A stretch of 64,000 nucleotides of DNA from a virus: IMG/VR virus record IMGVR_UViG_3300036823_000160, positions 13,537 to 77,536 of that record; one strand, given 5' to 3'. Of this stretch, positions 3,729 to 30,024 are shown in pieces; position 1 is the stretch's first letter, and each line of letters begins with the position of its first letter. The notes beneath the pieces are model-generated. The model did not search any database. It was not told where the DNA came from and saw only the letters and a program-made list of their open reading frames with translations. The position numbers and the translations under genes were made by a program.

Positions 3729-4379
3729 ATGACCATGCCCCCGGCGCGTATCCCAGCCATCCCGACGACGTACAACGGGGTCAACTTCCGATCACGGCTC
3801 GAGAGCCGCTGGGCCGCGTTCTTCGACCTGGTGGGATGGCGCTGGTCATACGAGCCGCTCGACCTCCCTGGTCGCATCCCAGACTTCGTCATGCACTTCG
3901 TCGACCCGACGATCATCGAGTGCAAGCCGGCGTTCTCGGTGTCCGAGCTCGCCGAGCAACGGCGGGCGATGGTTCGGTCGGCGGCGGGCTGGTTGACCGT
4001 CGAGGCCGAGCGCGAGCTCCGTCAGCTTGACCGAGCCCCCTATCGCGAGGGCGATCTCACCAGGATCGACGCGCTCGTGGAGCACCTGAGCGCCGTCCGC
4101 GACCGTGGCGAGAACCCCCGCACGGGGCGGCGGGCGCTGGTTGTCGGTTCCCGCTTGTTTTCGACCGGTCCGGGTGACGAGTTCATCTCGCCCGACGGCG
4201 AGTGCGTGTTCGCGCGTTGTCACGGTTCGGACGGTCACGTAGCTCTCATGCTTCACACCAGGACCTGCATCGCCTGTGGGCGCGATGTCGATTTCGCCCG
4301 CCGACATCACGATGTCCCGCGTGACGTGAACGCGTGGTGGACCGAGGCAGGTAACAAGGTGCAGTGGAAGCCCTCGTGA
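3729..4379 (+). CDS. PD-(D/E)XK nuclease family protein
   Basis: FRSRLESRWAAFFD...YEP...PDF...IECKP. Confidence 0.8.
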   Translation: MTMPPARIPAIPTTYNGVNFRSRLESRWAAFFDLVGWRWSYEPLDLPGRIPDFVMHFVDPTIIECKPAFSVSELAEQRRAMVRSAAGWLTVEAERELRQLDRAPYREGDLTRIDALVEHLSAVRDRGENPRTGRRALVVGSRLFSTGPGDEFISPDGECVFARCHGSDGHVALMLHTRTCIACGRDVDFARRHHDVPRDVNAWWTEAGNKVQWKPS

Positions 4380-7318
4380 ACGAGATCGCCCACAGCCCAG
4401 ACATCGGGGCGGCGATGGGGTTCTTGCGCTCCTGGATCCCAGGAGGGCCGTGGAGCCTTGGCGCGATCGATCCCGATGATCGCCAGGGCCTTGCTTGGAT
4501 CACTACCGAGAGCGAGGTCGAGGCCGAACGGTTCCTCGTCGAGCAGTCGGCGCTCCGGCGCGGGATCTACTACCAGCCGAACGTGTGCCGAGACGACCTC
4601 GGTCCACGCCGTGCGAAGAAGGAGCACGTCGCGGTCGCGCTCTGTCTCCACGCCGATGTGGACCCGCCGGCTGTCGCGTCCGCGGCCGAGCTTGCCGCGT
4701 GGCAGGTGACGACGATGGAGCGGCTCGCCGACGGTGAGCACTGGCGCGCGAGCGAGCTTCCGGCGCCGACCGCGATCGTGTTCTCTGGCTCCGGCTTCCA
4801 GCTGCTATGGCGGCTGGCAGAGCCGGTGCTGCTCTGGTCCGACACGAACGGAAGCACGGAGCAAGACCCCGCGCTCGTCGACTCGGTCGAGGGCCGCTGC
4901 TACTCCATCATCCGGCGCGTGGACCCGTCGCACGTTGGGACGCACAACGTCGATCGGCTTCTCCGTCTGCCAGGGACGCTCAACTGGCCGAACGAGAAGA
5001 AGCGCGCGAACGGGCGCACGATCCCGGAGCTCGCGGCGGTCGAGTGGATCGGCAACGACCACACGCTCGAAGCGTTCCCGTACGAGCAGCCGCCCGAGTC
5101 AGCCGAGGCAGCTCCACGCTCCGAGGGCGCGGCTGCGCTCGCCCGTGAAGGCCGGGTAGCACCGGCCGCGCTCGCGGCCGCGCTTCCGCCGTGGCTGCAC
5201 GAGGCTGTGGTCGAGGGTCCCGAGAAGGGCGCAGACCGGAGCAAGGCCGCGTTCGCGGCCATCTGCGGGCTGATCCGTTGCGTCGACGACGACACGATCG
5301 AGGCGATTCTCGGCGACCCTGCATTCGCCGTGAGCGGGCACTTCCTAGATCAAGCTGACGTCGAGCGAGCGATCGGTCGCGCGATCGATGCCGCGCACCT
5401 GGAAGTGGACGTAAAGATTGCACAAGGGCGACGGCTACTGGAGGCCATGCAGCGCGAGCTCGCCCGGCGCGCGCCGGTCCTCGCGGTCCCGGTCACGCCC
5501 CCTCCGGCGCCCTCGCCTCCGCCACTGGTTCTGGAACTCGAGGTCGCGCCTCCGAACCCGCTCGCGTTCGTGTTGCCCTCGCCGAGCGAGCCCGCGTCCA
5601 CAGGCGCTCCTTCGATCCCGACGACGATCGAGTTCGAGGCCGCGCTGCGATCCGTTCAACGTCGCCTGAGTCGCCGTGTGGATCCCGATGCGATCCAGGA
5701 CGCCGAGTTGCTGAAGCGCGTTCTGGAAGGCGAGTTCCTGACGGCGGCAACGGACGCCGAGGACGATCGACAGGGCACGCTAGCGCGCGCCGTGCTCGCA
5801 GTCGCGCGCGCGGCTCCTCCGGGGGCGACCTCGGACCAGATCCATCGCCAGCTTCTCGCCAGCTCAGGAGCACTTGCGTGTGATCTGCCGGAGGTGATCC
5901 AAGAGGCTCTCGTGGTCGCCATCGAGCTCGGCCCGATTGGTCTGCCGGTTCGAAAGGAATCCGCGACCCTCGCGGCGCGCGCGAGCGATCCCGATGATTT
6001 CGACATCGAGCTGAGCGGTCCGCGTGCGGGGCGCCCCGCGAGCGCGAACCAGCGCAACGTGCGCCTCGCACTGCGCAAGCTCGGCGTCGAGCTCCGCTAC
6101 AACGACTTCGCGCGCCAGGAGGAGATCGTTCGCGGCGGTCGCGTCGATGTCGTCGAAGATCCGCACGTGAAGGCGTTGCGCGCTGAGATGGAGTCCGCGC
6201 ACGACTTCCGTCCCGGCAAGGACGACCTGTTCGACATGTGCGAGGTGATCGCGCGCGAGAATGCGTATCACCCTATCCGCGACTACCTGGCGTCGCTCCC
6301 CGAGGACGCGCCCGCTGGATCGCCCGCGAAGTTGACCGAGCGCTGGCTGATCGACTGTGCCGGCGCCGAGGACACCCCATATGTGCGCGCGGTCTCGCGC
6401 CTCGTGCTGGTCGCCGCGGTGCGGCGCGTGCGCCATCCGGGATGCAAGTTCGATGAGATGCTGGTCCTGGAGACGCCAATCCAGGGCAAGGACAAGTCCA
6501 AGGCTCTCGCCGCGCTCGCGGTTCGCGACGAGTGGTTCACCGACGATTTCAACTTCAAGAACGTCGACGACACCAAGAAGATGATGGAGACCACGACCGG
6601 TCGCTGGATCGTCGAGGCCGGCGAGCTAAAGGGCATGAACGAGGGTCGCTACAACGACCTCAAGGCGTACCTGTCCCGTCGCAAGGACGCCGCACGCGCC
6701 GCGTACGGACGAAAAACCACGACGGTGTTTCGCGAGTTCATCATCATCGGAACGACCAACGAGCAAAAGTACCTGCTCGATCCCACGGGCAACCGTCGAA
6801 TCTGGCCGGTTCGTGTGGTGCGCTTCGACGTCCTCGCACTGCTCGCGATGCGCGATCAACTGTGGGCGGAGGCTTCGCGCCTGGAGCTCGAGCACCCCGA
6901 GCCGGAGTATATCCGGCTCGATCCCGAGCTCTATGCGGCGGCGGCCGAACAGCAGGCCGCGCGCGAGGTCGATGATCCGATCCGCGAACGCCTGGATCGG
7001 GTCCTCGCCGACATCACCGGGCGGATCCGTGTCGAGGACGCGTGGAAAATCGTTGGCTACGAAGACGAGATCCCAAACCGCAGGGACAGCATGGCGATCT
7101 CCTCTGCGATGCAGTCGCTCGGGTTCGCACAGAGGCGAATCACGCAGGCTGGGGATCGTGGGACCTGGTACCGCCGCGGCGCGACCGAAGAGGAGCGTGA
7201 CCAGATCCTCGGCTTGACCGGCGGTGCCGCTGCGGGCTGGCGCGTCGGTCCAAAAGCAGGTGTCTATGGCGCGCGCCGATCCGGCCCATTGTCCGGTCCT
7301 GACCGGCGCGCGAACTAG
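4364..7318 (+). CDS. primase (RepB/AEP-like) fused to VapE/VirE helicase
   Basis: N-term DVD, SGSGFQ, RLLRLPGT; C-term PGCKFD, QGKDKS, RAAYGR, GTTN, DPTGNRR. Confidence 0.88.
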   Translation: MEALVNEIAHSPDIGAAMGFLRSWIPGGPWSLGAIDPDDRQGLAWITTESEVEAERFLVEQSALRRGIYYQPNVCRDDLGPRRAKKEHVAVALCLHADVDPPAVASAAELAAWQVTTMERLADGEHWRASELPAPTAIVFSGSGFQLLWRLAEPVLLWSDTNGSTEQDPALVDSVEGRCYSIIRRVDPSHVGTHNVDRLLRLPGTLNWPNEKKRANGRTIPELAAVEWIGNDHTLEAFPYEQPPESAEAAPRSEGAAALAREGRVAPAALAAALPPWLHEAVVEGPEKGADRSKAAFAAICGLIRCVDDDTIEAILGDPAFAVSGHFLDQADVERAIGRAIDAAHLEVDVKIAQGRRLLEAMQRELARRAPVLAVPVTPPPAPSPPPLVLELEVAPPNPLAFVLPSPSEPASTGAPSIPTTIEFEAALRSVQRRLSRRVDPDAIQDAELLKRVLEGEFLTAATDAEDDRQGTLARAVLAVARAAPPGATSDQIHRQLLASSGALACDLPEVIQEALVVAIELGPIGLPVRKESATLAARASDPDDFDIELSGPRAGRPASANQRNVRLALRKLGVELRYNDFARQEEIVRGGRVDVVEDPHVKALRAEMESAHDFRPGKDDLFDMCEVIARENAYHPIRDYLASLPEDAPAGSPAKLTERWLIDCAGAEDTPYVRAVSRLVLVAAVRRVRHPGCKFDEMLVLETPIQGKDKSKALAALAVRDEWFTDDFNFKNVDDTKKMMETTTGRWIVEAGELKGMNEGRYNDLKAYLSRRKDAARAAYGRKTTTVFREFIIIGTTNEQKYLLDPTGNRRIWPVRVVRFDVLALLAMRDQLWAEASRLELEHPEPEYIRLDPELYAAAAEQQAAREVDDPIRERLDRVLADITGRIRVEDAWKIVGYEDEIPNRRDSMAISSAMQSLGFAQRRITQAGDRGTWYRRGATEEERDQILGLTGGAAAGWRVGPKAGVYGARRSGPLSGPDRRAN

Positions 7319-14357: not shown

Positions 14358-15196
14358 CCGCGCGTCTACCGGTCATCGGCTCGACCGCGAAGTCGACCGC
14401 GTTCGTGAGCGAGCGCCTCGACGGGCTCAATGGAACGTACCTGTTCCTCGACGGGAACGACAAGATCACCGCGGGCAACGGGACACCCGGCGAGCCGAAG
14501 GCGAACGCGTTATCGCTCGTCCAGATCCAGGACTGTCCGGGCTCGACAGAGACGTGCCGCAAGAGCTGCTACGTTCATCCGCTCCAGAGCGCGCAGCCGG
14601 ATCTACACGCACTCTATACGCACAACAGCACCGAGATCCGGCGCATCCTCGCGGACAAGCACCTCGCCGACGACTGGTCGAGGCGCCTCGCGAGCTGGAT
14701 CTCGGCGAACGCTAGCGCGGGCTTTCGCTGGCATGTGAGCGGCGACGTGTTCTCGCTCGAGTACGCCGAGTGGATCGCGGACGTGTGCCGCGAGAGCGCG
14801 AGCGTGCGCTCGTGGATCTACACGCGCTCGTTCCAATTCCTCGAGCCGCTTGTCGAAGTGTCCACCACTCGCGGCGGCAACCTCGCGCTTAACCTGTCGG
14901 CGGACCAGGACAATTACCTCAACGCGTTCCAGGCGGTGGCGGCGCATCGCGTCCTCGGCCAATCCGTGCTGCGGATCTGCTACCTCACGACGGATGGCGA
15001 GATCCCGTTGTCGCTGCCGTTCGACTCGGTCGTGTTCCCGGACTACGCGCTGCGTCCGCGCCAGCACGCGACCCTCGCCGATAGCGAGTGGTGGCAGGGG
15101 CTCGAGCCGCGCCAACGCGCGATGGTCTGTCCGGTCGATGCGCACGGCAAGGCAGAGAAGCGGCGCTGTGGGCCCTGTCGTAAGTGCATGGACTAG
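14354..15196 (+). CDS. Gp88-family (radical-SAM-like) protein
   Basis: CPGSTETCRKSCY, FRWHVSGD, WIYTRS, NLSAD, CGPCRKC. Confidence 0.75.
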   Translation: MTARLPVIGSTAKSTAFVSERLDGLNGTYLFLDGNDKITAGNGTPGEPKANALSLVQIQDCPGSTETCRKSCYVHPLQSAQPDLHALYTHNSTEIRRILADKHLADDWSRRLASWISANASAGFRWHVSGDVFSLEYAEWIADVCRESASVRSWIYTRSFQFLEPLVEVSTTRGGNLALNLSADQDNYLNAFQAVAAHRVLGQSVLRICYLTTDGEIPLSLPFDSVVFPDYALRPRQHATLADSEWWQGLEPRQRAMVCPVDAHGKAEKRRCGPCRKCMD

Positions 15197-16433: not shown

Positions 16434-16789
16434 CACACCTGCGCTGGCTCGTGGATCGTTTGGTGTCTCGGGTGTGGTTCTGGCGCCATCACATCGAGGC
16501 CGTGATGCCGACCGACCAGGTTGGTCAGTACATGGCCGAGTGCTCGTGCGGTGGCGGGGTGCAGTTCGTGGCGCACTGGTCGCACGCGTCCGTGATCACG
16601 GTCTCGACGTGCGCGCTCGGCTCATGGTTGATGTGCCGCGGTCACGGTGTCGCGTTGTCACCCGCACGCATCGATCGATCGAGCGCTGAAAGCGCTCGCC
16701 CGATCTCGCGGTTCCTCGTCGAGTGCAGCTCGACCGCGTCGCCTCGTTTAGTACGACCGCGCTTGCGTTCGACCTCGAGACCCACGTAG
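16430..16789 (+). CDS. hypothetical protein (3' end uncertain)
   Basis: ATGA-coupled; runs over the promoter motif and polymerase start. Confidence 0.45.
   Translation: MTHLRWLVDRLVSRVWFWRHHIEAVMPTDQVGQYMAECSCGGGVQFVAHWSHASVITVSTCALGSWLMCRGHGVALSPARIDRSSAESARPISRFLVECSSTASPRLVRPRLRSTSRPT
16688..16714 (+). promoter_or_regulatory. ECF-type promoter motif
   Basis: GAAAGC-N15-CGGTTC, GTG 8 nt downstream. Confidence 0.8.
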
Positions 16790-18192
16790 TACAGCCAGGG
16801 CTTCTAGTCCCGCCTGTCGTGTGCGGGTCGGCGGCGTGGCTCGAACCCGGACCGACGATCGCGGGTGCCCTCCTGGCCAAACAAGACGCGCTCGAGGCGT
16901 TCGCGAACGCGATCGAGGACCCGAACGTCGTCATCGTGGGCGCGAATATCGCCTACGACCTCGCGTGCTGTGTCGTCGAGCTCGCTCGGCTGGGCGTCGA
17001 CGCGATACCTCAGGTGTTCGGCGCGCTCGAGGACGGCCGCGTGTTCGACGTGCAGATTGCCGAGGCGCTCAACGCGATCGCGTGCGGTCACCTTGGCAAG
17101 GATCCAAGGACGATGCAGCCGATCGTCACGCCGGGCACGAAGAAGCGTGGCCGGTACTCACTCTCGACCTGCGTCCTTCACGTGCTAGGACGCAGCGACG
17201 CGAAGGCGAACGACGAGTGGCGACTGCGCTACGCCGAGCTCGAGCACGTGCCGATCGCGGACTGGCCTACGGCCGCGCGCGACTACCCCATCGACGACGC
17301 GAAGAACACGCTTGAGGTCGGGCTAGCTCAGACAGGGCAGTTGCCGAAGGTCTATTCTAAGCACTCGTTCGTCGACGTCGAAGGGCCCGAGAACCAGATC
17401 ACGAGCGCGTGCCAGAACTGCGGCTCGACTCGGCACGCGATCGAATGCGTCGGTCGCGGGCCACACGCCAATCTCGTCGACCACGCGCGCCAGGTCCATA
17501 CCGCGTTCTGTCTCCACCTCGGCGCGATGTGGGGGTTCCATGTCGATCAGGACGCGGTCGACATCATCGAGCGTCACGCGATCCGTGATCGCGACAACGG
17601 TGTGACCCCGTTCCGCGAGGCCGGGATCGTGCGCGAGGACGGATCCGAGGACCAGTCGCTCCTCAAGAAACTTGTCCTGCTCGCATACGCACCGGACAGC
17701 GCCCCGTGCCCGTGCTGTGCCGGGACCGGCAGGATCCCCAGCCCGACGCAGAAACCCCTCCGGTGCCCGGCCTGTCGAGGCCGCTGCCAGCCCTGGAAGG
17801 GCGGCGGCAAGATCAAGGAGCCGACGGTCGAGTACTGCGCTACGTGCGCGACCGAGCAGTGCCCCACGGGATCGGGAAAGGTCCCCCACCCGAGGCCCGA
17901 GTTGATCGGCTGTGTCCTGCCCGAGAAGGTCAAGACCTGCGACGGAACCGGGTACGCGCTGACCGAGAGCGTTCCCAAGACGAACACCGGCGGCGTGGGC
18001 AAGGGCCGCAGCGTGCTGCACGAGTCCGGGGACGAGTTCCTGATGCGGCTCGGCGACTACAAGAAAAACGCGAAGGTCCTGCGCGTATACGTGCCGTACT
18101 TGCGCGGCGTCTTGATCGAGGACGACGAACACGGGGACGGCGCCGCCGTGGCTCCCGTAGAGGAACCGGAGGAGGCCAGCGATGCTGAGTGA
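16723..18192 (+). CDS. family A DNA polymerase, N-terminal part (3'-5' exonuclease + thumb, Zn-finger inserts)
   Basis: ExoI FDLET, ExoII GANIAYD, ExoIII YPIDDA; ends after KVLRVYVPYL with an acidic tail. Confidence 0.85.
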   Translation: MQLDRVASFSTTALAFDLETHVVQPGLLVPPVVCGSAAWLEPGPTIAGALLAKQDALEAFANAIEDPNVVIVGANIAYDLACCVVELARLGVDAIPQVFGALEDGRVFDVQIAEALNAIACGHLGKDPRTMQPIVTPGTKKRGRYSLSTCVLHVLGRSDAKANDEWRLRYAELEHVPIADWPTAARDYPIDDAKNTLEVGLAQTGQLPKVYSKHSFVDVEGPENQITSACQNCGSTRHAIECVGRGPHANLVDHARQVHTAFCLHLGAMWGFHVDQDAVDIIERHAIRDRDNGVTPFREAGIVREDGSEDQSLLKKLVLLAYAPDSAPCPCCAGTGRIPSPTQKPLRCPACRGRCQPWKGGGKIKEPTVEYCATCATEQCPTGSGKVPHPRPELIGCVLPEKVKTCDGTGYALTESVPKTNTGGVGKGRSVLHESGDEFLMRLGDYKKNAKVLRVYVPYLRGVLIEDDEHGDGAAVAPVEEPEEASDAE

Positions 18193-18433
18193 CTTAGATA
18201 GCGAGTGCCCGAACGACTGCTGGTGCCGCTTTGTGCGCGTGGACGGTGTTCCCATCGAGATCGAGGAAGACAAACCGTTCACGGACCCTCGCTCGATCGC
18301 GTGCCCCGAAGCGGCCTGTGTGGGTACGCTTCGCTCCGGCGGACGCAACGTTCCCAACACACTCACGTTCCTGATCTGCGACGTGTGCGCGTGCGCGTAT
18401 GTCGCCGAGGACCGGCCGGGGATCTCGACGTGA
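18182..18433 (+). CDS. Cys-rich small protein inserted between polymerase halves
   Basis: 83 aa with 8 Cys; overlaps both neighbours. Confidence 0.65.
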   Translation: MLSDLDSECPNDCWCRFVRVDGVPIEIEEDKPFTDPRSIACPEAACVGTLRSGGRNVPNTLTFLICDVCACAYVAEDRPGIST

Positions 18434-19707
18434 CGCGCACGGTCCCGCTCACGCTGCGGCCGAACGTGATCGTCGATACCGGACGCGTCTCGTATGACGG
18501 CGTGGTCCAGCTGTTCCCACGCAAGGGTGGCTATCGGGATCGCCAGAGCAAGGAGTGGGTCCCGTCGCTGCGCGAGTGTATCGTCGCTCGTCCCGGCTAC
18601 GTGTTCTCGAGCGAGGACTACACGGCCGGCGAACTGTTCACGCATGCACAGTCGTGCCTGTGGTTGCTCGGGTACTCCGATCTCGCCAAGACCCTACTCG
18701 CGGGCATCAATCCGCACGCCGAGCTCGCGTCGCGCGTGCTCGGGATCGCCTACGAGCAGTTCGACAAGAAGATCAAGCAGCACGCCGACACGCGCCAGGC
18801 CGCCAAGCCCGTCGTGTTCGGCAAGCCGGGAGGCATGGGTGACGCGAAGATGGTCATCCAGCAGCGCTCGCAAGGCCCGGACACGCCGTGCCCCGACGGG
18901 CCGTCCGAGGTCGACGACGGTAACGGCGACAAGGTCCCCGGCTATACGGGGTTGCGGTTCTGCGTTCTGATGAACGGTGCGCGCCGGTGTGGCGAGCACC
19001 CGGACGGCCGGCCGAACCGGACCACGCGCTGGGGCGGCAAGTACTCGAAGCCGATCGCGCCGACGTGCGTAGCGTGTCTTGAGTGCGCGGCCCAGATCAG
19101 CCGGATCTGGAAGGACTCGGGTCGAGAGAACCAGCCCTACTTCAACCTCGTCGAGGAATTCGGCGAGTACGGCATGACCATCACGCCGGACATGATCGCG
19201 CGCTGGCCGTGGATCGGCGAGTGGTACGAGCCCGGCCAGCAGTTGGCGCCTGGCCAGGTGATGCAGCACTGGTCGGGGAGGCTTCGCGGCGGCCTCGATT
19301 TCTGCGACATGGCGAACGGGTTCTTTCAGGCGCTGCTCGCGGACGCGACGAAGTCCGCGCTGCGCCGCATCGTGCGCGAGTGCTACGTCCACACGATTGT
19401 TCCCGAGTTCGCGCACGAGAACTCGCGGCGCTCGCAGTTCGCAGGCTGTCCGTCACCGTTACTGGGTTCGCGCGCGATCGGGTTCTTCCATGATGAACTC
19501 TTTATGGAGCATCCCGAGTCGATCGCACACGAGGCCGCGACGCGCGTGTCCGAGATCATGGTCGAGGAGCTCGTGTGGATCTGCCCCGACGTCGGGCCGA
19601 AGGTATCCGCGGAACCGACGCTGATGCGCCGCTGGAGCAAGAGCGCGGAGAAGGTCACGGACGCCAACGGGCGCCTGATCCCGTGGGAGCCGCGGATCGC
19701 GGCGTAG
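18430..19707 (+). CDS. family A DNA polymerase, C-terminal part (palm/fingers)
   Basis: TGRVS, motif A DYTAGEL, motif B RQAAKPVVFG, motif C FHDEL. Confidence 0.9.
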   Translation: MTRTVPLTLRPNVIVDTGRVSYDGVVQLFPRKGGYRDRQSKEWVPSLRECIVARPGYVFSSEDYTAGELFTHAQSCLWLLGYSDLAKTLLAGINPHAELASRVLGIAYEQFDKKIKQHADTRQAAKPVVFGKPGGMGDAKMVIQQRSQGPDTPCPDGPSEVDDGNGDKVPGYTGLRFCVLMNGARRCGEHPDGRPNRTTRWGGKYSKPIAPTCVACLECAAQISRIWKDSGRENQPYFNLVEEFGEYGMTITPDMIARWPWIGEWYEPGQQLAPGQVMQHWSGRLRGGLDFCDMANGFFQALLADATKSALRRIVRECYVHTIVPEFAHENSRRSQFAGCPSPLLGSRAIGFFHDELFMEHPESIAHEAATRVSEIMVEELVWICPDVGPKVSAEPTLMRRWSKSAEKVTDANGRLIPWEPRIAA

Positions 19708-28360: not shown

Positions 28361-29671
28361 GTGGGCGAGCTCCGCGTACTTCTCGAACATGCGCGCTGCG
28401 CGTTGTTCACGGGCGACTCGGCCGACCTCGGCCAGGTGCTGCCCGATAACTCCGTCGACGCGTTGCTGACCGACCCACCCTCGGCCATGAGCTTCATGGC
28501 CCGGAAGTGGGATTCGGATCGCGGCGGCCGCGATGAGTGGGTGAGGTGGCTCGCGCGCACGCTCGAGCCCTCCTACCGCGCGCTCAAACCGGGCGCGCAC
28601 GGCGCGTGCTGGGCGATCCCGCGGACCTCGCACTGGGCCGCGCTCGCACTCGAGTTCGTCGGATTCGAGATCCGTGACGTGCACCACGACTTGCTCACGG
28701 TCGACGGCCTTGTCGACGCCTTCGTCGCGACGCTGGACGACACGCAGCGCGCCGCGTTCGATCGGCTGCTCTCGTCGCAGGTCGAGCCGATCGTCTATCA
28801 CCTGTTTGGTCAAGGCTTCCCGAAGTCGCTCACGTCCGCGAGCGCGAACATCCCGAGCACGGAAGGGACCGCGCTCAAGCCTGCCGCCGAGCACTGGATC
28901 ATCGTTCGGAAGCCGCTCGGCAAGCTGACGGTGGCCGAGTGCCGCGCGAAGTACGGGACCGGGACGCTCGGCATTGACGCGTGCCGTGGTGCGTCGGAGC
29001 ACAGCGCTGATCGCGGCGACGACGAGCGCACATACGCGAACGATGATCGCGCGCTCCACGTGACACCGGGACCGCGCGGTGGCGCGGCCGCGGGACGATG
29101 GCCGGCACACCTGTCCCTGGATGAGGGCGTGGCCGAGATCCTCGACGCACAGGCTGGCGAGCTGCGCAGCGGCGCGTTAGCGGCTGGAACACCCCGCGGC
29201 GAGAACCAGATCTTCGGGAAGGCACCGGGGACCGCCGCGACCCTGACCGACATCAAGTCGTCGCGCGGCGGCGCGAGCCGGTACTTCTACGTACGCAAAC
29301 CGACGCGCAAGGAGAAGGAGTTCGGCCTCGAGCACCTGGTGCCCCGCGGCGGCGGCGAAGCCACCGGCCGCCCCGAGGGCTCGGCCGGCACCAAGAACGC
29401 GCGCGCGGGCGCGGGCCGCACCGGCGGCGCACGCAATATTCATCCGACCGTCAAGAGCGTCGAACTGATGCGGTGGCTGATCGAACTCATCGCACCTAAC
29501 AAGGACGCCACGGTGATCGATCCGTTCGCTGGATCGGGATCGACCGCGGTCGCCGCGCTCGAGTCCGGGCGCTCGTTCGTCGGCTGCGAACTCGGTGGCG
29601 ACAACGGTGAGTACCTACCCGTGCTCGAGGGTCGCGTTCGCCACGCGCTCGGGCTGCCGGCGACGCTGTGA
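28361..29671 (+). CDS. N6/N4 DNA methyltransferase (beta order)
   Basis: TDPPS, GQGFPKS, ALKPAAE, HPTVK, DPFAGSGST. Confidence 0.9.
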   Translation: MGELRVLLEHARCALFTGDSADLGQVLPDNSVDALLTDPPSAMSFMARKWDSDRGGRDEWVRWLARTLEPSYRALKPGAHGACWAIPRTSHWAALALEFVGFEIRDVHHDLLTVDGLVDAFVATLDDTQRAAFDRLLSSQVEPIVYHLFGQGFPKSLTSASANIPSTEGTALKPAAEHWIIVRKPLGKLTVAECRAKYGTGTLGIDACRGASEHSADRGDDERTYANDDRALHVTPGPRGGAAAGRWPAHLSLDEGVAEILDAQAGELRSGALAAGTPRGENQIFGKAPGTAATLTDIKSSRGGASRYFYVRKPTRKEKEFGLEHLVPRGGGEATGRPEGSAGTKNARAGAGRTGGARNIHPTVKSVELMRWLIELIAPNKDATVIDPFAGSGSTAVAALESGRSFVGCELGGDNGEYLPVLEGRVRHALGLPATL

Positions 29672-30024
29672 CCTCGACCGAGCGAAGCCGGCGCCGGCGC
29701 GCGCTCATGACGCCGGCCCAGCGCACAGGGTACCAGTCCAAGTACGCGAAGAAGCGGCGCCTCGATCTCGTGAAGCTACTCTCGTTGGACGGCAGGTGTG
29801 CGCGGTGCGGAGAAGTGTTCGAGCACGAGCACCTGACCGTGAACCACGTCGACGGGATCGACTGGGATCACAACGAGGTCAACCAGCAGCGCCGCTACGC
29901 GCGGTACTGGCGCGAGCACGCGAGCGGCGTCCGGCTCAACGCGCTGTGTGGCGCGTGCAACAGCTCCGACGGGAACAGGTTCCGCGACCAGAACGAGATC
30001 GCCACCGACGAGATCCCATTCTAG
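29668..30024 (+). CDS. HNH-like Zn-binding endonuclease
   Basis: CARCG...LTVNH...LCGACN. Confidence 0.65.
   Translation: MTSTERSRRRRALMTPAQRTGYQSKYAKKRRLDLVKLLSLDGRCARCGEVFEHEHLTVNHVDGIDWDHNEVNQQRRYARYWREHASGVRLNALCGACNSSDGNRFRDQNEIATDEIPF

Follow-up and report, generated by a model that had tools for sequence, protein, structure and literature searches.

Why would a virus carry its DNA polymerase gene in two pieces, and what is the small gene that sits at the break? The question is raised by the IMG/VR virus record IMGVR_UViG_3300036823_000160, of which we analyzed a stretch of 64,000 nucleotides (bases 13537-77536 of the record, referred to here as the window and numbered from its first base). 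Within the window, a family A DNA polymerase (PolA) is encoded by two open reading frames (ORFs), and an 83-residue ORF with eight cysteines lies between them and overlaps both. The reading that we favor, at a probability of roughly 0.78, is a two-subunit PolA that arose by endonuclease-driven gene fission, with the Cys-rich ORF now occupying the endonuclease slot.

Two halves of one family A polymerase

The locus is made up of the following features.

16723..18192, + strand: PolA N-half gene, ORF1; 489 amino acids, frame 1; 3'-5' exonuclease and thumb, with a DnaJ-like CxxCxGxG Cys-rich insertion; TGA stop at 18190-18192
18115..18189, + strand: acidic C-terminal tail of the N-half, residues 465-489, LIEDDEHGDGAAVAPVEEPEEASDAE; without counterpart in fused relatives
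18168..18175, + strand: Shine-Dalgarno-like GGAGGAGG, 6 nucleotides before the small-ORF ATG and inside the Glu codons of the acidic tail; read from the sequence
18182..18433, + strand: small eight-Cys ORF; 83 amino acids, frame 2; ATG at 18182, TGA at 18431-18433; zinc-ribbon-like CPxxxC...CxxC pattern plus four more Cys
18430..19707, + strand: PolA C-half gene, ORF3; 425 amino acids, GTG start; palm and fingers, with a Cys-rich fingers insertion

This arrangement confirms the coordinates of the original prediction, which had been made by eye and proposed a PolA divided into an exonuclease-thumb ORF and a palm-fingers ORF with the 83-residue, eight-Cys ORF overlapping both. ORF1 ends in ...KVLRVYVPYLRG, followed by an acidic tail of about 27 residues and the TGA; a second in-frame stop (TAG, 18199-18201) lies two codons further on. 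The overlap between ORF1 and the small ORF is 11 nucleotides (ATGCTGAGTGA), and that between the small ORF and ORF3 is 4 (GTGA). The longest call for ORF3 opens at 18205, with homology starting only at the GTG at 18430 (VTRTVPLTLRPNVIVDTGRVS), and an identical 425-residue C-half protein was also called independently. ORF1 and ORF3 share a frame, relative to which the small ORF is at +1. Between 18180 and 18430, the G+C content at third codon positions (GC3, in 90-nucleotide windows) is 0.73-0.87 in frame 2, that of the small ORF, versus 0.41-0.62 in frame 1, that of the polymerase. On account of these values, the interval appears to be coding in the frame of the small ORF and non-coding in that of the polymerase.

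Do the two ORFs add up to a whole enzyme? The polymerase belongs to a divergent family. Pfam DNA_pol_A_exo1 matches ORF1 with an E-value (E) of 0.0034 (17.6 bits, under the gathering cut-off of 23.6), DNA_pol_A matches ORF3 with E 1.3e-7 (31.4 bits, under the gathering cut-off of 34.3), and PHROG 17, annotated as 'DNA polymerase', matches the C-half with E 6e-16. On the fused 729-residue polymerase of MW202816.1, ORF1 covers residues 4-368 and ORF3 covers residues 375-721, leaving about 6 residues between them uncovered; the halves are complementary with little missing, as had been proposed. Fused relatives of 729-950 residues are matched from one end to the other by the two ORFs. An exhaustive search with the C-half returned 3562 homologs, and fused enzymes of about 700-950 residues account for 107 of the 150 best cluster representatives.

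Reading ORF1 through both stops into ORF3 gives a pseudo-fusion (P0257), which was aligned with 49 fused relatives (alignment A3, 50 sequences). All columns invariant across the 50 sequences are kept in the window, among them D79 and Y188/D192 in the exonuclease and R588 (TGR), D632/E637 (motif A), R691/K695 (motif B), and H923/D924 (motif C) in the polymerase; also kept are N75, F699/G700, and E925, which are invariant or nearly so, and the nearly invariant D17/E19 pair. The Exo I, II, and III carboxylates, TGR, and motifs A, B, and C are all present and are spread over both ORFs, the C-half reading TGR, SSEDYxAGEL (motif A), RQAAKPVVFG (motif B), and HDE (motif C).

The AlphaFold2 model of this read-through pseudo-fusion, which is not a heterodimer prediction, is one Klenow-like enzyme with a mean predicted local distance difference test score (pLDDT) of 86.7 and a predicted template modeling score (pTM) of 0.86. 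The pLDDT exceeds 85 for most of residues 1-466 and is about 90 or higher in the C-half, and long disorder is seen only at residues 467-491 (the acidic tail, pLDDT <50) and 500-568 (out-of-frame filler). The top Foldseek matches are Klenow, Bst, Aquifex, and apicoplast PolA, at a probability of 1.00 and template modeling (TM) scores of 0.64-0.71, normalized by target length. The cut falls after helix 438-461, the last on the thumb side (...VYVPYLRG), and before strand 571-573, the first of the palm, which leads to TGR; judged by the model, 'thumb/palm boundary' seems a fair description of its position. A PDB sequence profile left the first 20 C-half residues unaligned and gave no residue-level map of the split site onto Klenow.

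Could the split have been introduced by assembly or sequencing, or could the polymerase be a decaying pseudogene? The record is a metagenome-derived contig, and the only full-length confirmation may share a sample with it. That confirmation, a 74,832-nucleotide Logan contig, is identical to the window over 17700-18900 with zero indels; two assemblers give the same sequence, which disfavors the assembly chimera that the original prediction had itself raised as a concern. It is implausible that error would create two clean, coupled junctions and an ORF with the correct GC3, and the same architecture is found in many independent relatives. A pseudogene is disfavored because the catalytic-motif residues and other invariant columns of the family are intact. 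We consider either form of this explanation extremely improbable.

How might two ORFs yield one enzyme? The replicative polymerase would be made as two polypeptides, an N-half of 489 residues and a C-half of 425. Translation would be coupled from the ORF1 stop to the small-ORF ATG and from the small-ORF stop to the ORF3 GTG, such that ribosomes finishing the N-half would be passed on to the C-half through translation of the small ORF, by terminating and reinitiating. We infer that the split enzyme is active, its halves probably coming together again by non-covalent contacts to form a single Klenow-like enzyme. The acidic tail may promote assembly with the C-half, whose start is basic, or it may do no more than encode the purine-rich ribosome-binding site of the next gene. 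A two-subunit PolA, as originally proposed, is supported by the complementarity of the halves, the retention of invariant columns, the joint Klenow-like fold, and the existence of relatives split with no insert (L010 and L025, described below).

Each half also carries a Cys-rich insertion of its own. In ORF1 (residues ~325-415; window 17690-17990), the column of C406 is invariant and those of C329, C332, and C397 are nearly so across the 50 relatives; because of this, the DnaJ-like CxxCxGxG insertion in the thumb region can be taken, from the alignment, as a family feature not peculiar to this phage. In ORF3, an insertion that separates motif B from motif C contains a four-Cys cluster (C178, C187, C213, and C216; residues ~178-216; window 18960-19075). 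None of the four Cys columns varies in the 16 aligned C-halves of alignment A2, a pattern suggestive of structural zinc binding in the fingers.

Recurrent breaks at one linker

Is the break peculiar to this virus? Fused relatives have a linker of 0 to about 45 residues between YxP(Y/F)LR and (I/V)PLTLRPN, often with a small Cys/His cluster in the nearest clades; it is a tolerant, variable surface loop. Many stand-alone C-halves, on contigs of up to 144 kb, begin exactly at this linker (MRVIPLTLRPNP, MRDVPLTLRPNI, MITRSIPITLRPNV, and others). In relative L010, the N-half ends in ...FLRNGYVPEGVEADDESDEDEG at its stop codon and overlaps the ATG of the C-half, with an empty gap. In L025, whose N-half tail ends in ...EVSDEETEDDTDDE before the stop, stop and start overlap and the gap is likewise empty. 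In L024, the N-half tail (...EVPDDEDEFDEDDE, then the stop) is followed by a gene for a 162-residue Endonuclease_7 (HNH-type) protein (E 8e-19) and then by the C-half MRIPIPITLRPNV, with a GTGA overlap at both junctions, as at the small-ORF/ORF3 junction of the window. The window has in common with L010, L024, and L025 the polymerase family, the linker position, an acidic N-half tail, and GTGA or ATG...TGA coupling; in contrast, the Cys-rich ORF is present in the window and in none of those three.

C-half identity to the window is 63-67% for P0154 and P0155, 51-59% for the fused L003 and P0001, and 43-46% for L010, L024, and L025. The window clusters with the split forms P0154 and P0155, and L010, L024, and L025 fall in separate clades. 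A maximum-likelihood IQ-TREE phylogeny of C-halves (21 type A split and 33 fused) contains 8 changes of state, at least 7 of which are forced by well-supported branches; a larger FastTree phylogeny contains at least 24. In the comparison with relatives that had been suggested along with the original prediction, the linker is a recurrent fission site, split in several lineages of the family and mostly fused elsewhere. The C-halves of L023 and L026 show internal frame changes on short metagenome contigs, which may be sequencing errors or further interruptions. A viral-contig scan for close relatives with ORF3 alone as query gave no match, and a GTDB genome scan found no relatives, hence no prophage and no host clue.

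Might the insert of ~240-320 nucleotides instead be spliced out of the RNA or the protein, or be bypassed by ribosomes, to restore a single polypeptide? The shared frame of ORF1 and ORF3 would suit such a route, phage PolA genes are known to host group I introns (as cited in PMC10580990), and inteins occur elsewhere in the polymerase of relatives (P0009). However, an Rfam scan of 17500-19000 at E up to 10 found no group I or group II intron and returned only a chance CRISPR-repeat match (E 3.1), the RNA fold z-score of 0.09 for 18150-18470 indicates no unusual stability, and the insert is occupied by an ORF with a coding signature. An intein would have to be encoded out of frame, with two stops in the polymerase frame. 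Protein trans-splicing by a split intein is not expected, because the tails are too short (27 residues on the N-half and at most 6 on the C-half, compared with about 100 for an N-intein and about 35 for a C-intein) and the Cys/Ser and His-Asn junction residues are absent. Bypass would have to span a gap of ~240 nucleotides, as opposed to about 50 for the T4 gene 60 type, and its take-off codon would be GAG, with no in-frame GAG before 18430 (the frame-1 codons are GAT CTC GAC GTG). Moreover, relatives with an overlapping stop/start and an empty junction cannot use any of these routes. A restored single polypeptide is very unlikely, in agreement with the original prediction, which had placed a spliced or bypassed insert behind a two-subunit enzyme and had seen neither intein termini nor homing endonuclease motifs.

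The small cysteine-rich ORF

What does the small ORF encode? Its cysteines are at positions 9, 13, 15, 41, 46, 66, 69, and 71, and include a C41-P-x3-C46 ... C66-x2-C69 pattern. This pattern is kept in the sole homolog, P0152, a protein of 62 residues with 59% identity and eight Cys on a 22.8-kb JGI contig; both have CP..C, GTLR, and an identical 18-residue block, TLTFLICDVCACAYVAED. The small ORF looks coding because of its GC3, its strong Shine-Dalgarno, and a homolog with that block, and on the strength of the conservation with P0152 its product is probably a folded, two-zinc protein rather than decaying filler. Pieces of the region are found on short contigs from two other soil studies, and the sole variant seen, a T>C at 18325 in one other soil run, is synonymous in the small-ORF frame.

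Pfam and PHROG searches gave no family for the small ORF, no nuclease motif was found in it, and no similarity to the L005 endonuclease (see below) was detected. A search for longer proteins with the small ORF inside, at E up to 0.1, found none. P0152 matched nothing when used to scan viral and metagenome contigs, nor did alignment A1 in viral contigs. The AlphaFold2 model from the two-sequence alignment has a pLDDT of 39 and no confident fold, and the protein atlas returned only generic zinc-ribbon leads (score 0.91, 119-126 shared features). By eye, the N-terminus (SECPNDCWC...RVDGVPIEI) resembles the linker of fused relatives, and we considered that it could be a displaced zinc-knuckle linker. 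This idea was rejected, as a hidden Markov model built from seven linkers and run against six-frame pieces of the window did not place the small ORF above noise.

Did the small gene cause the split? The original prediction described the polymerase as split by an inserted Cys-rich gene, and on this point the relatives contradict it. Because the same site is split without the small ORF (L010 and L025) and with an Endonuclease_7 gene (L024), the small ORF is more likely an occupant of the endonuclease slot, as a replacement or a passenger, than the cause of the split. The gap between the halves would correspond to the slot used in relatives by free-standing Endonuclease_7/HNH homing endonucleases with the same GTGA couplings. 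Here it would hold an orphan gene for a zinc mini-protein without nuclease motifs, which could be a passenger, a coupler, or a third subunit.

The last of these roles can be put in a stronger form, in which the 83-residue protein is an obligatory third subunit, a zinc module acting in trans to bridge or clamp the halves, perhaps in place of the zinc-knuckle linker with its Cys/His residues in cis. Fused P0001, P0003, P0158, L008, and L009 do have H...CP...CxC linkers at the same site, but the profile of such zinc-knuckle linkers misses the small ORF above noise. GC3, the strong Shine-Dalgarno, and the block shared with the eight-Cys P0152 make the small ORF look expressed and under selection, and coupled translation would tend to match the amounts of all three products; however, the same split stands without such a gene in L010 and L025, the homolog is a single one, and the small protein has no confident fold. 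We consider an obligatory third subunit unlikely. Doubtful, too, is the wider proposal that the eight-Cys mini-protein represents a previously undescribed zinc module, element-borne or dedicated to the polymerase. It might be a trans third subunit derived from a cis zinc-knuckle linker, or a minimal, nuclease-free selfish gene that occupies and protects a homing-endonuclease target site; more broadly, natural PolA split points could carry insertion-derived acidic and basic tails as assembly tags.

Some observations weigh against a two-subunit PolA born of endonuclease-driven fission. Neither Pfam, nor PHROG, nor the comparison with L005 detects any resemblance of the small ORF to a homing endonuclease, and for this reason an endonuclease origin of this particular split would rest on analogy with the relatives. 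The evidence that the halves associate and are active is indirect, consisting of motif conservation and a coherent joint fold. Finally, the Logan contig possibly comes from the same sample or reads as the window.

A second fission site and other selfish elements

A second fission zone lies ~40-55 residues downstream of the window's split, before motif A. Endonuclease_7 genes are found at this second hotspot in L005 (L005:5162-5602; E 4e-23) and L044 (L044:307-723; E 8e-17), with a conserved N-half tail, EEIEVPDDYVLQxGEE followed by the stop, on one side and, on the other, a basic head on the C-half, M[LK]I[KR]R.... In L019 (L019:217-402), a 61-residue Cys-containing ORF replaces the endonuclease between the same tail and head, which for the three relatives taken together read EVPDDY[VI]LQxxEE plus the stop and M[LKI]I[RK]R.... 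Heads of the MLIRRP type are found elsewhere too: P0160 has one at the first site, and P0182 and L044 have one at positions in between. Because the same head is found at three different cut positions, head and tail appear to travel with the insert and not with the polymerase position.

Selfish elements of several kinds converge on this polymerase family. P0009 (743 residues) has an apparent intein directly past the motif B lysine (RQATK, then CFHPDTEVL...), and inteins may also be present in the oversized P0049, P0072, P0104, P0110, P0131, and P0134 (1050-1140 residues). In P0045 (486 residues), the C-half has an Endonuclease_7 domain joined to it in frame via an MRRIRRP head, as though the endonuclease and the half that follows it had been fused or read through as one. 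Elsewhere in the window, the sole match to Endonuclease_7 is sub-threshold (E 0.005, 17.3 bits) and falls in a 118-residue ORF at 29668-30024 that could be a divergent HNH endonuclease.

Genomic setting

The source record is 77.5 kb long and is rated 100% complete by CheckV, the G+C content of the window is ~67%, and the sequencing runs that carry the sequence are labeled as soil metagenome. The PolA genes lie in a replication and early-gene region on the + strand. Upstream of the polymerase are a 984-residue protein with a VapE-like domain (4364-7318; E 2e-58), probably of the primase/helicase type, and a GP88-family protein (14375-15196; E 8e-24).

Comparison with known systems

What does this locus add? 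Few essential phage replication genes are known to tolerate fission at a mobile-endonuclease site through assembly of their products, and the locus would add to them a PolA case supported by comparison with relatives. The pattern of split sites, in which one linker has changed state at least 7 times, a second hotspot lies 40-55 residues downstream, a tail and head are conserved beside endonuclease genes, and inteins occur at motif B, offers evolution-tested split sites for Klenow-like polymerases, which are useful for split-enzyme engineering. Polymerases of this kind will be under-called by annotation pipelines, which will take them for fragments. As for the Cys-rich orphan, it is a candidate polymerase accessory factor or a candidate new passenger of the endonuclease slot.

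Among the closest parallels in kind is NrdA of Aeromonas phage Aeh1, which is split by mobE, is active, and needs insertion-derived tails (PMC3045599; Friedrich 2007; Crona 2011). The locus shares with Aeh1 the division into two ORFs, at a site used by mobile endonucleases, of an essential gene related to replication that relatives carry unbroken; new tails, C-terminal and N-terminal, are found at the break, and the route back to function would be assembly of subunits, not splicing. The conserved tail and head beside the endonuclease genes of the relatives parallel the tails created by the Aeh1 insertion (PMC3045599). Unlike Aeh1, the gene encodes PolA and not ribonucleotide reductase, and where the Aeh1 insert is a recognizable HNH endonuclease, the window has an 83-residue Cys-rich ORF without nuclease motifs.

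Gene 43 polymerase (gp43, as 43A/43B) is split in the T4-related Aeromonas phages 25 and 44RR; the halves from phage 25 co-purify and are polymerase-active, and between the halves lies a seg-type endonuclease in one phage, and in another nothing but untranslated spacer (PMC2988022). There, too, a replicative phage DNA polymerase is carried in two genes, but it belongs to family B and not family A, the split site is a different one, and a small Cys-rich ORF is present only here. Another published split phage PolA likewise has a small ORF of unassigned function between its halves; it belongs to a distant lineage and was not detected by tblastn with ORF3. In the fractured genes described by Dassa 2009 (PMC2677866), split inteins are accompanied by a free-standing endonuclease. 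Like them, the locus has a replication gene broken in two around a slot of the endonuclease type; unlike them, it has no split-intein halves at the break. Other known genes in pieces include that of the T4 topoisomerase (PMC2988022). Set beside these systems, the locus is a further example of the known genes-in-pieces pattern and involves no new mechanism; what is noteworthy here is the orphan Cys-rich occupant of the slot, together with a hotspot pattern that extends across the whole polymerase family.

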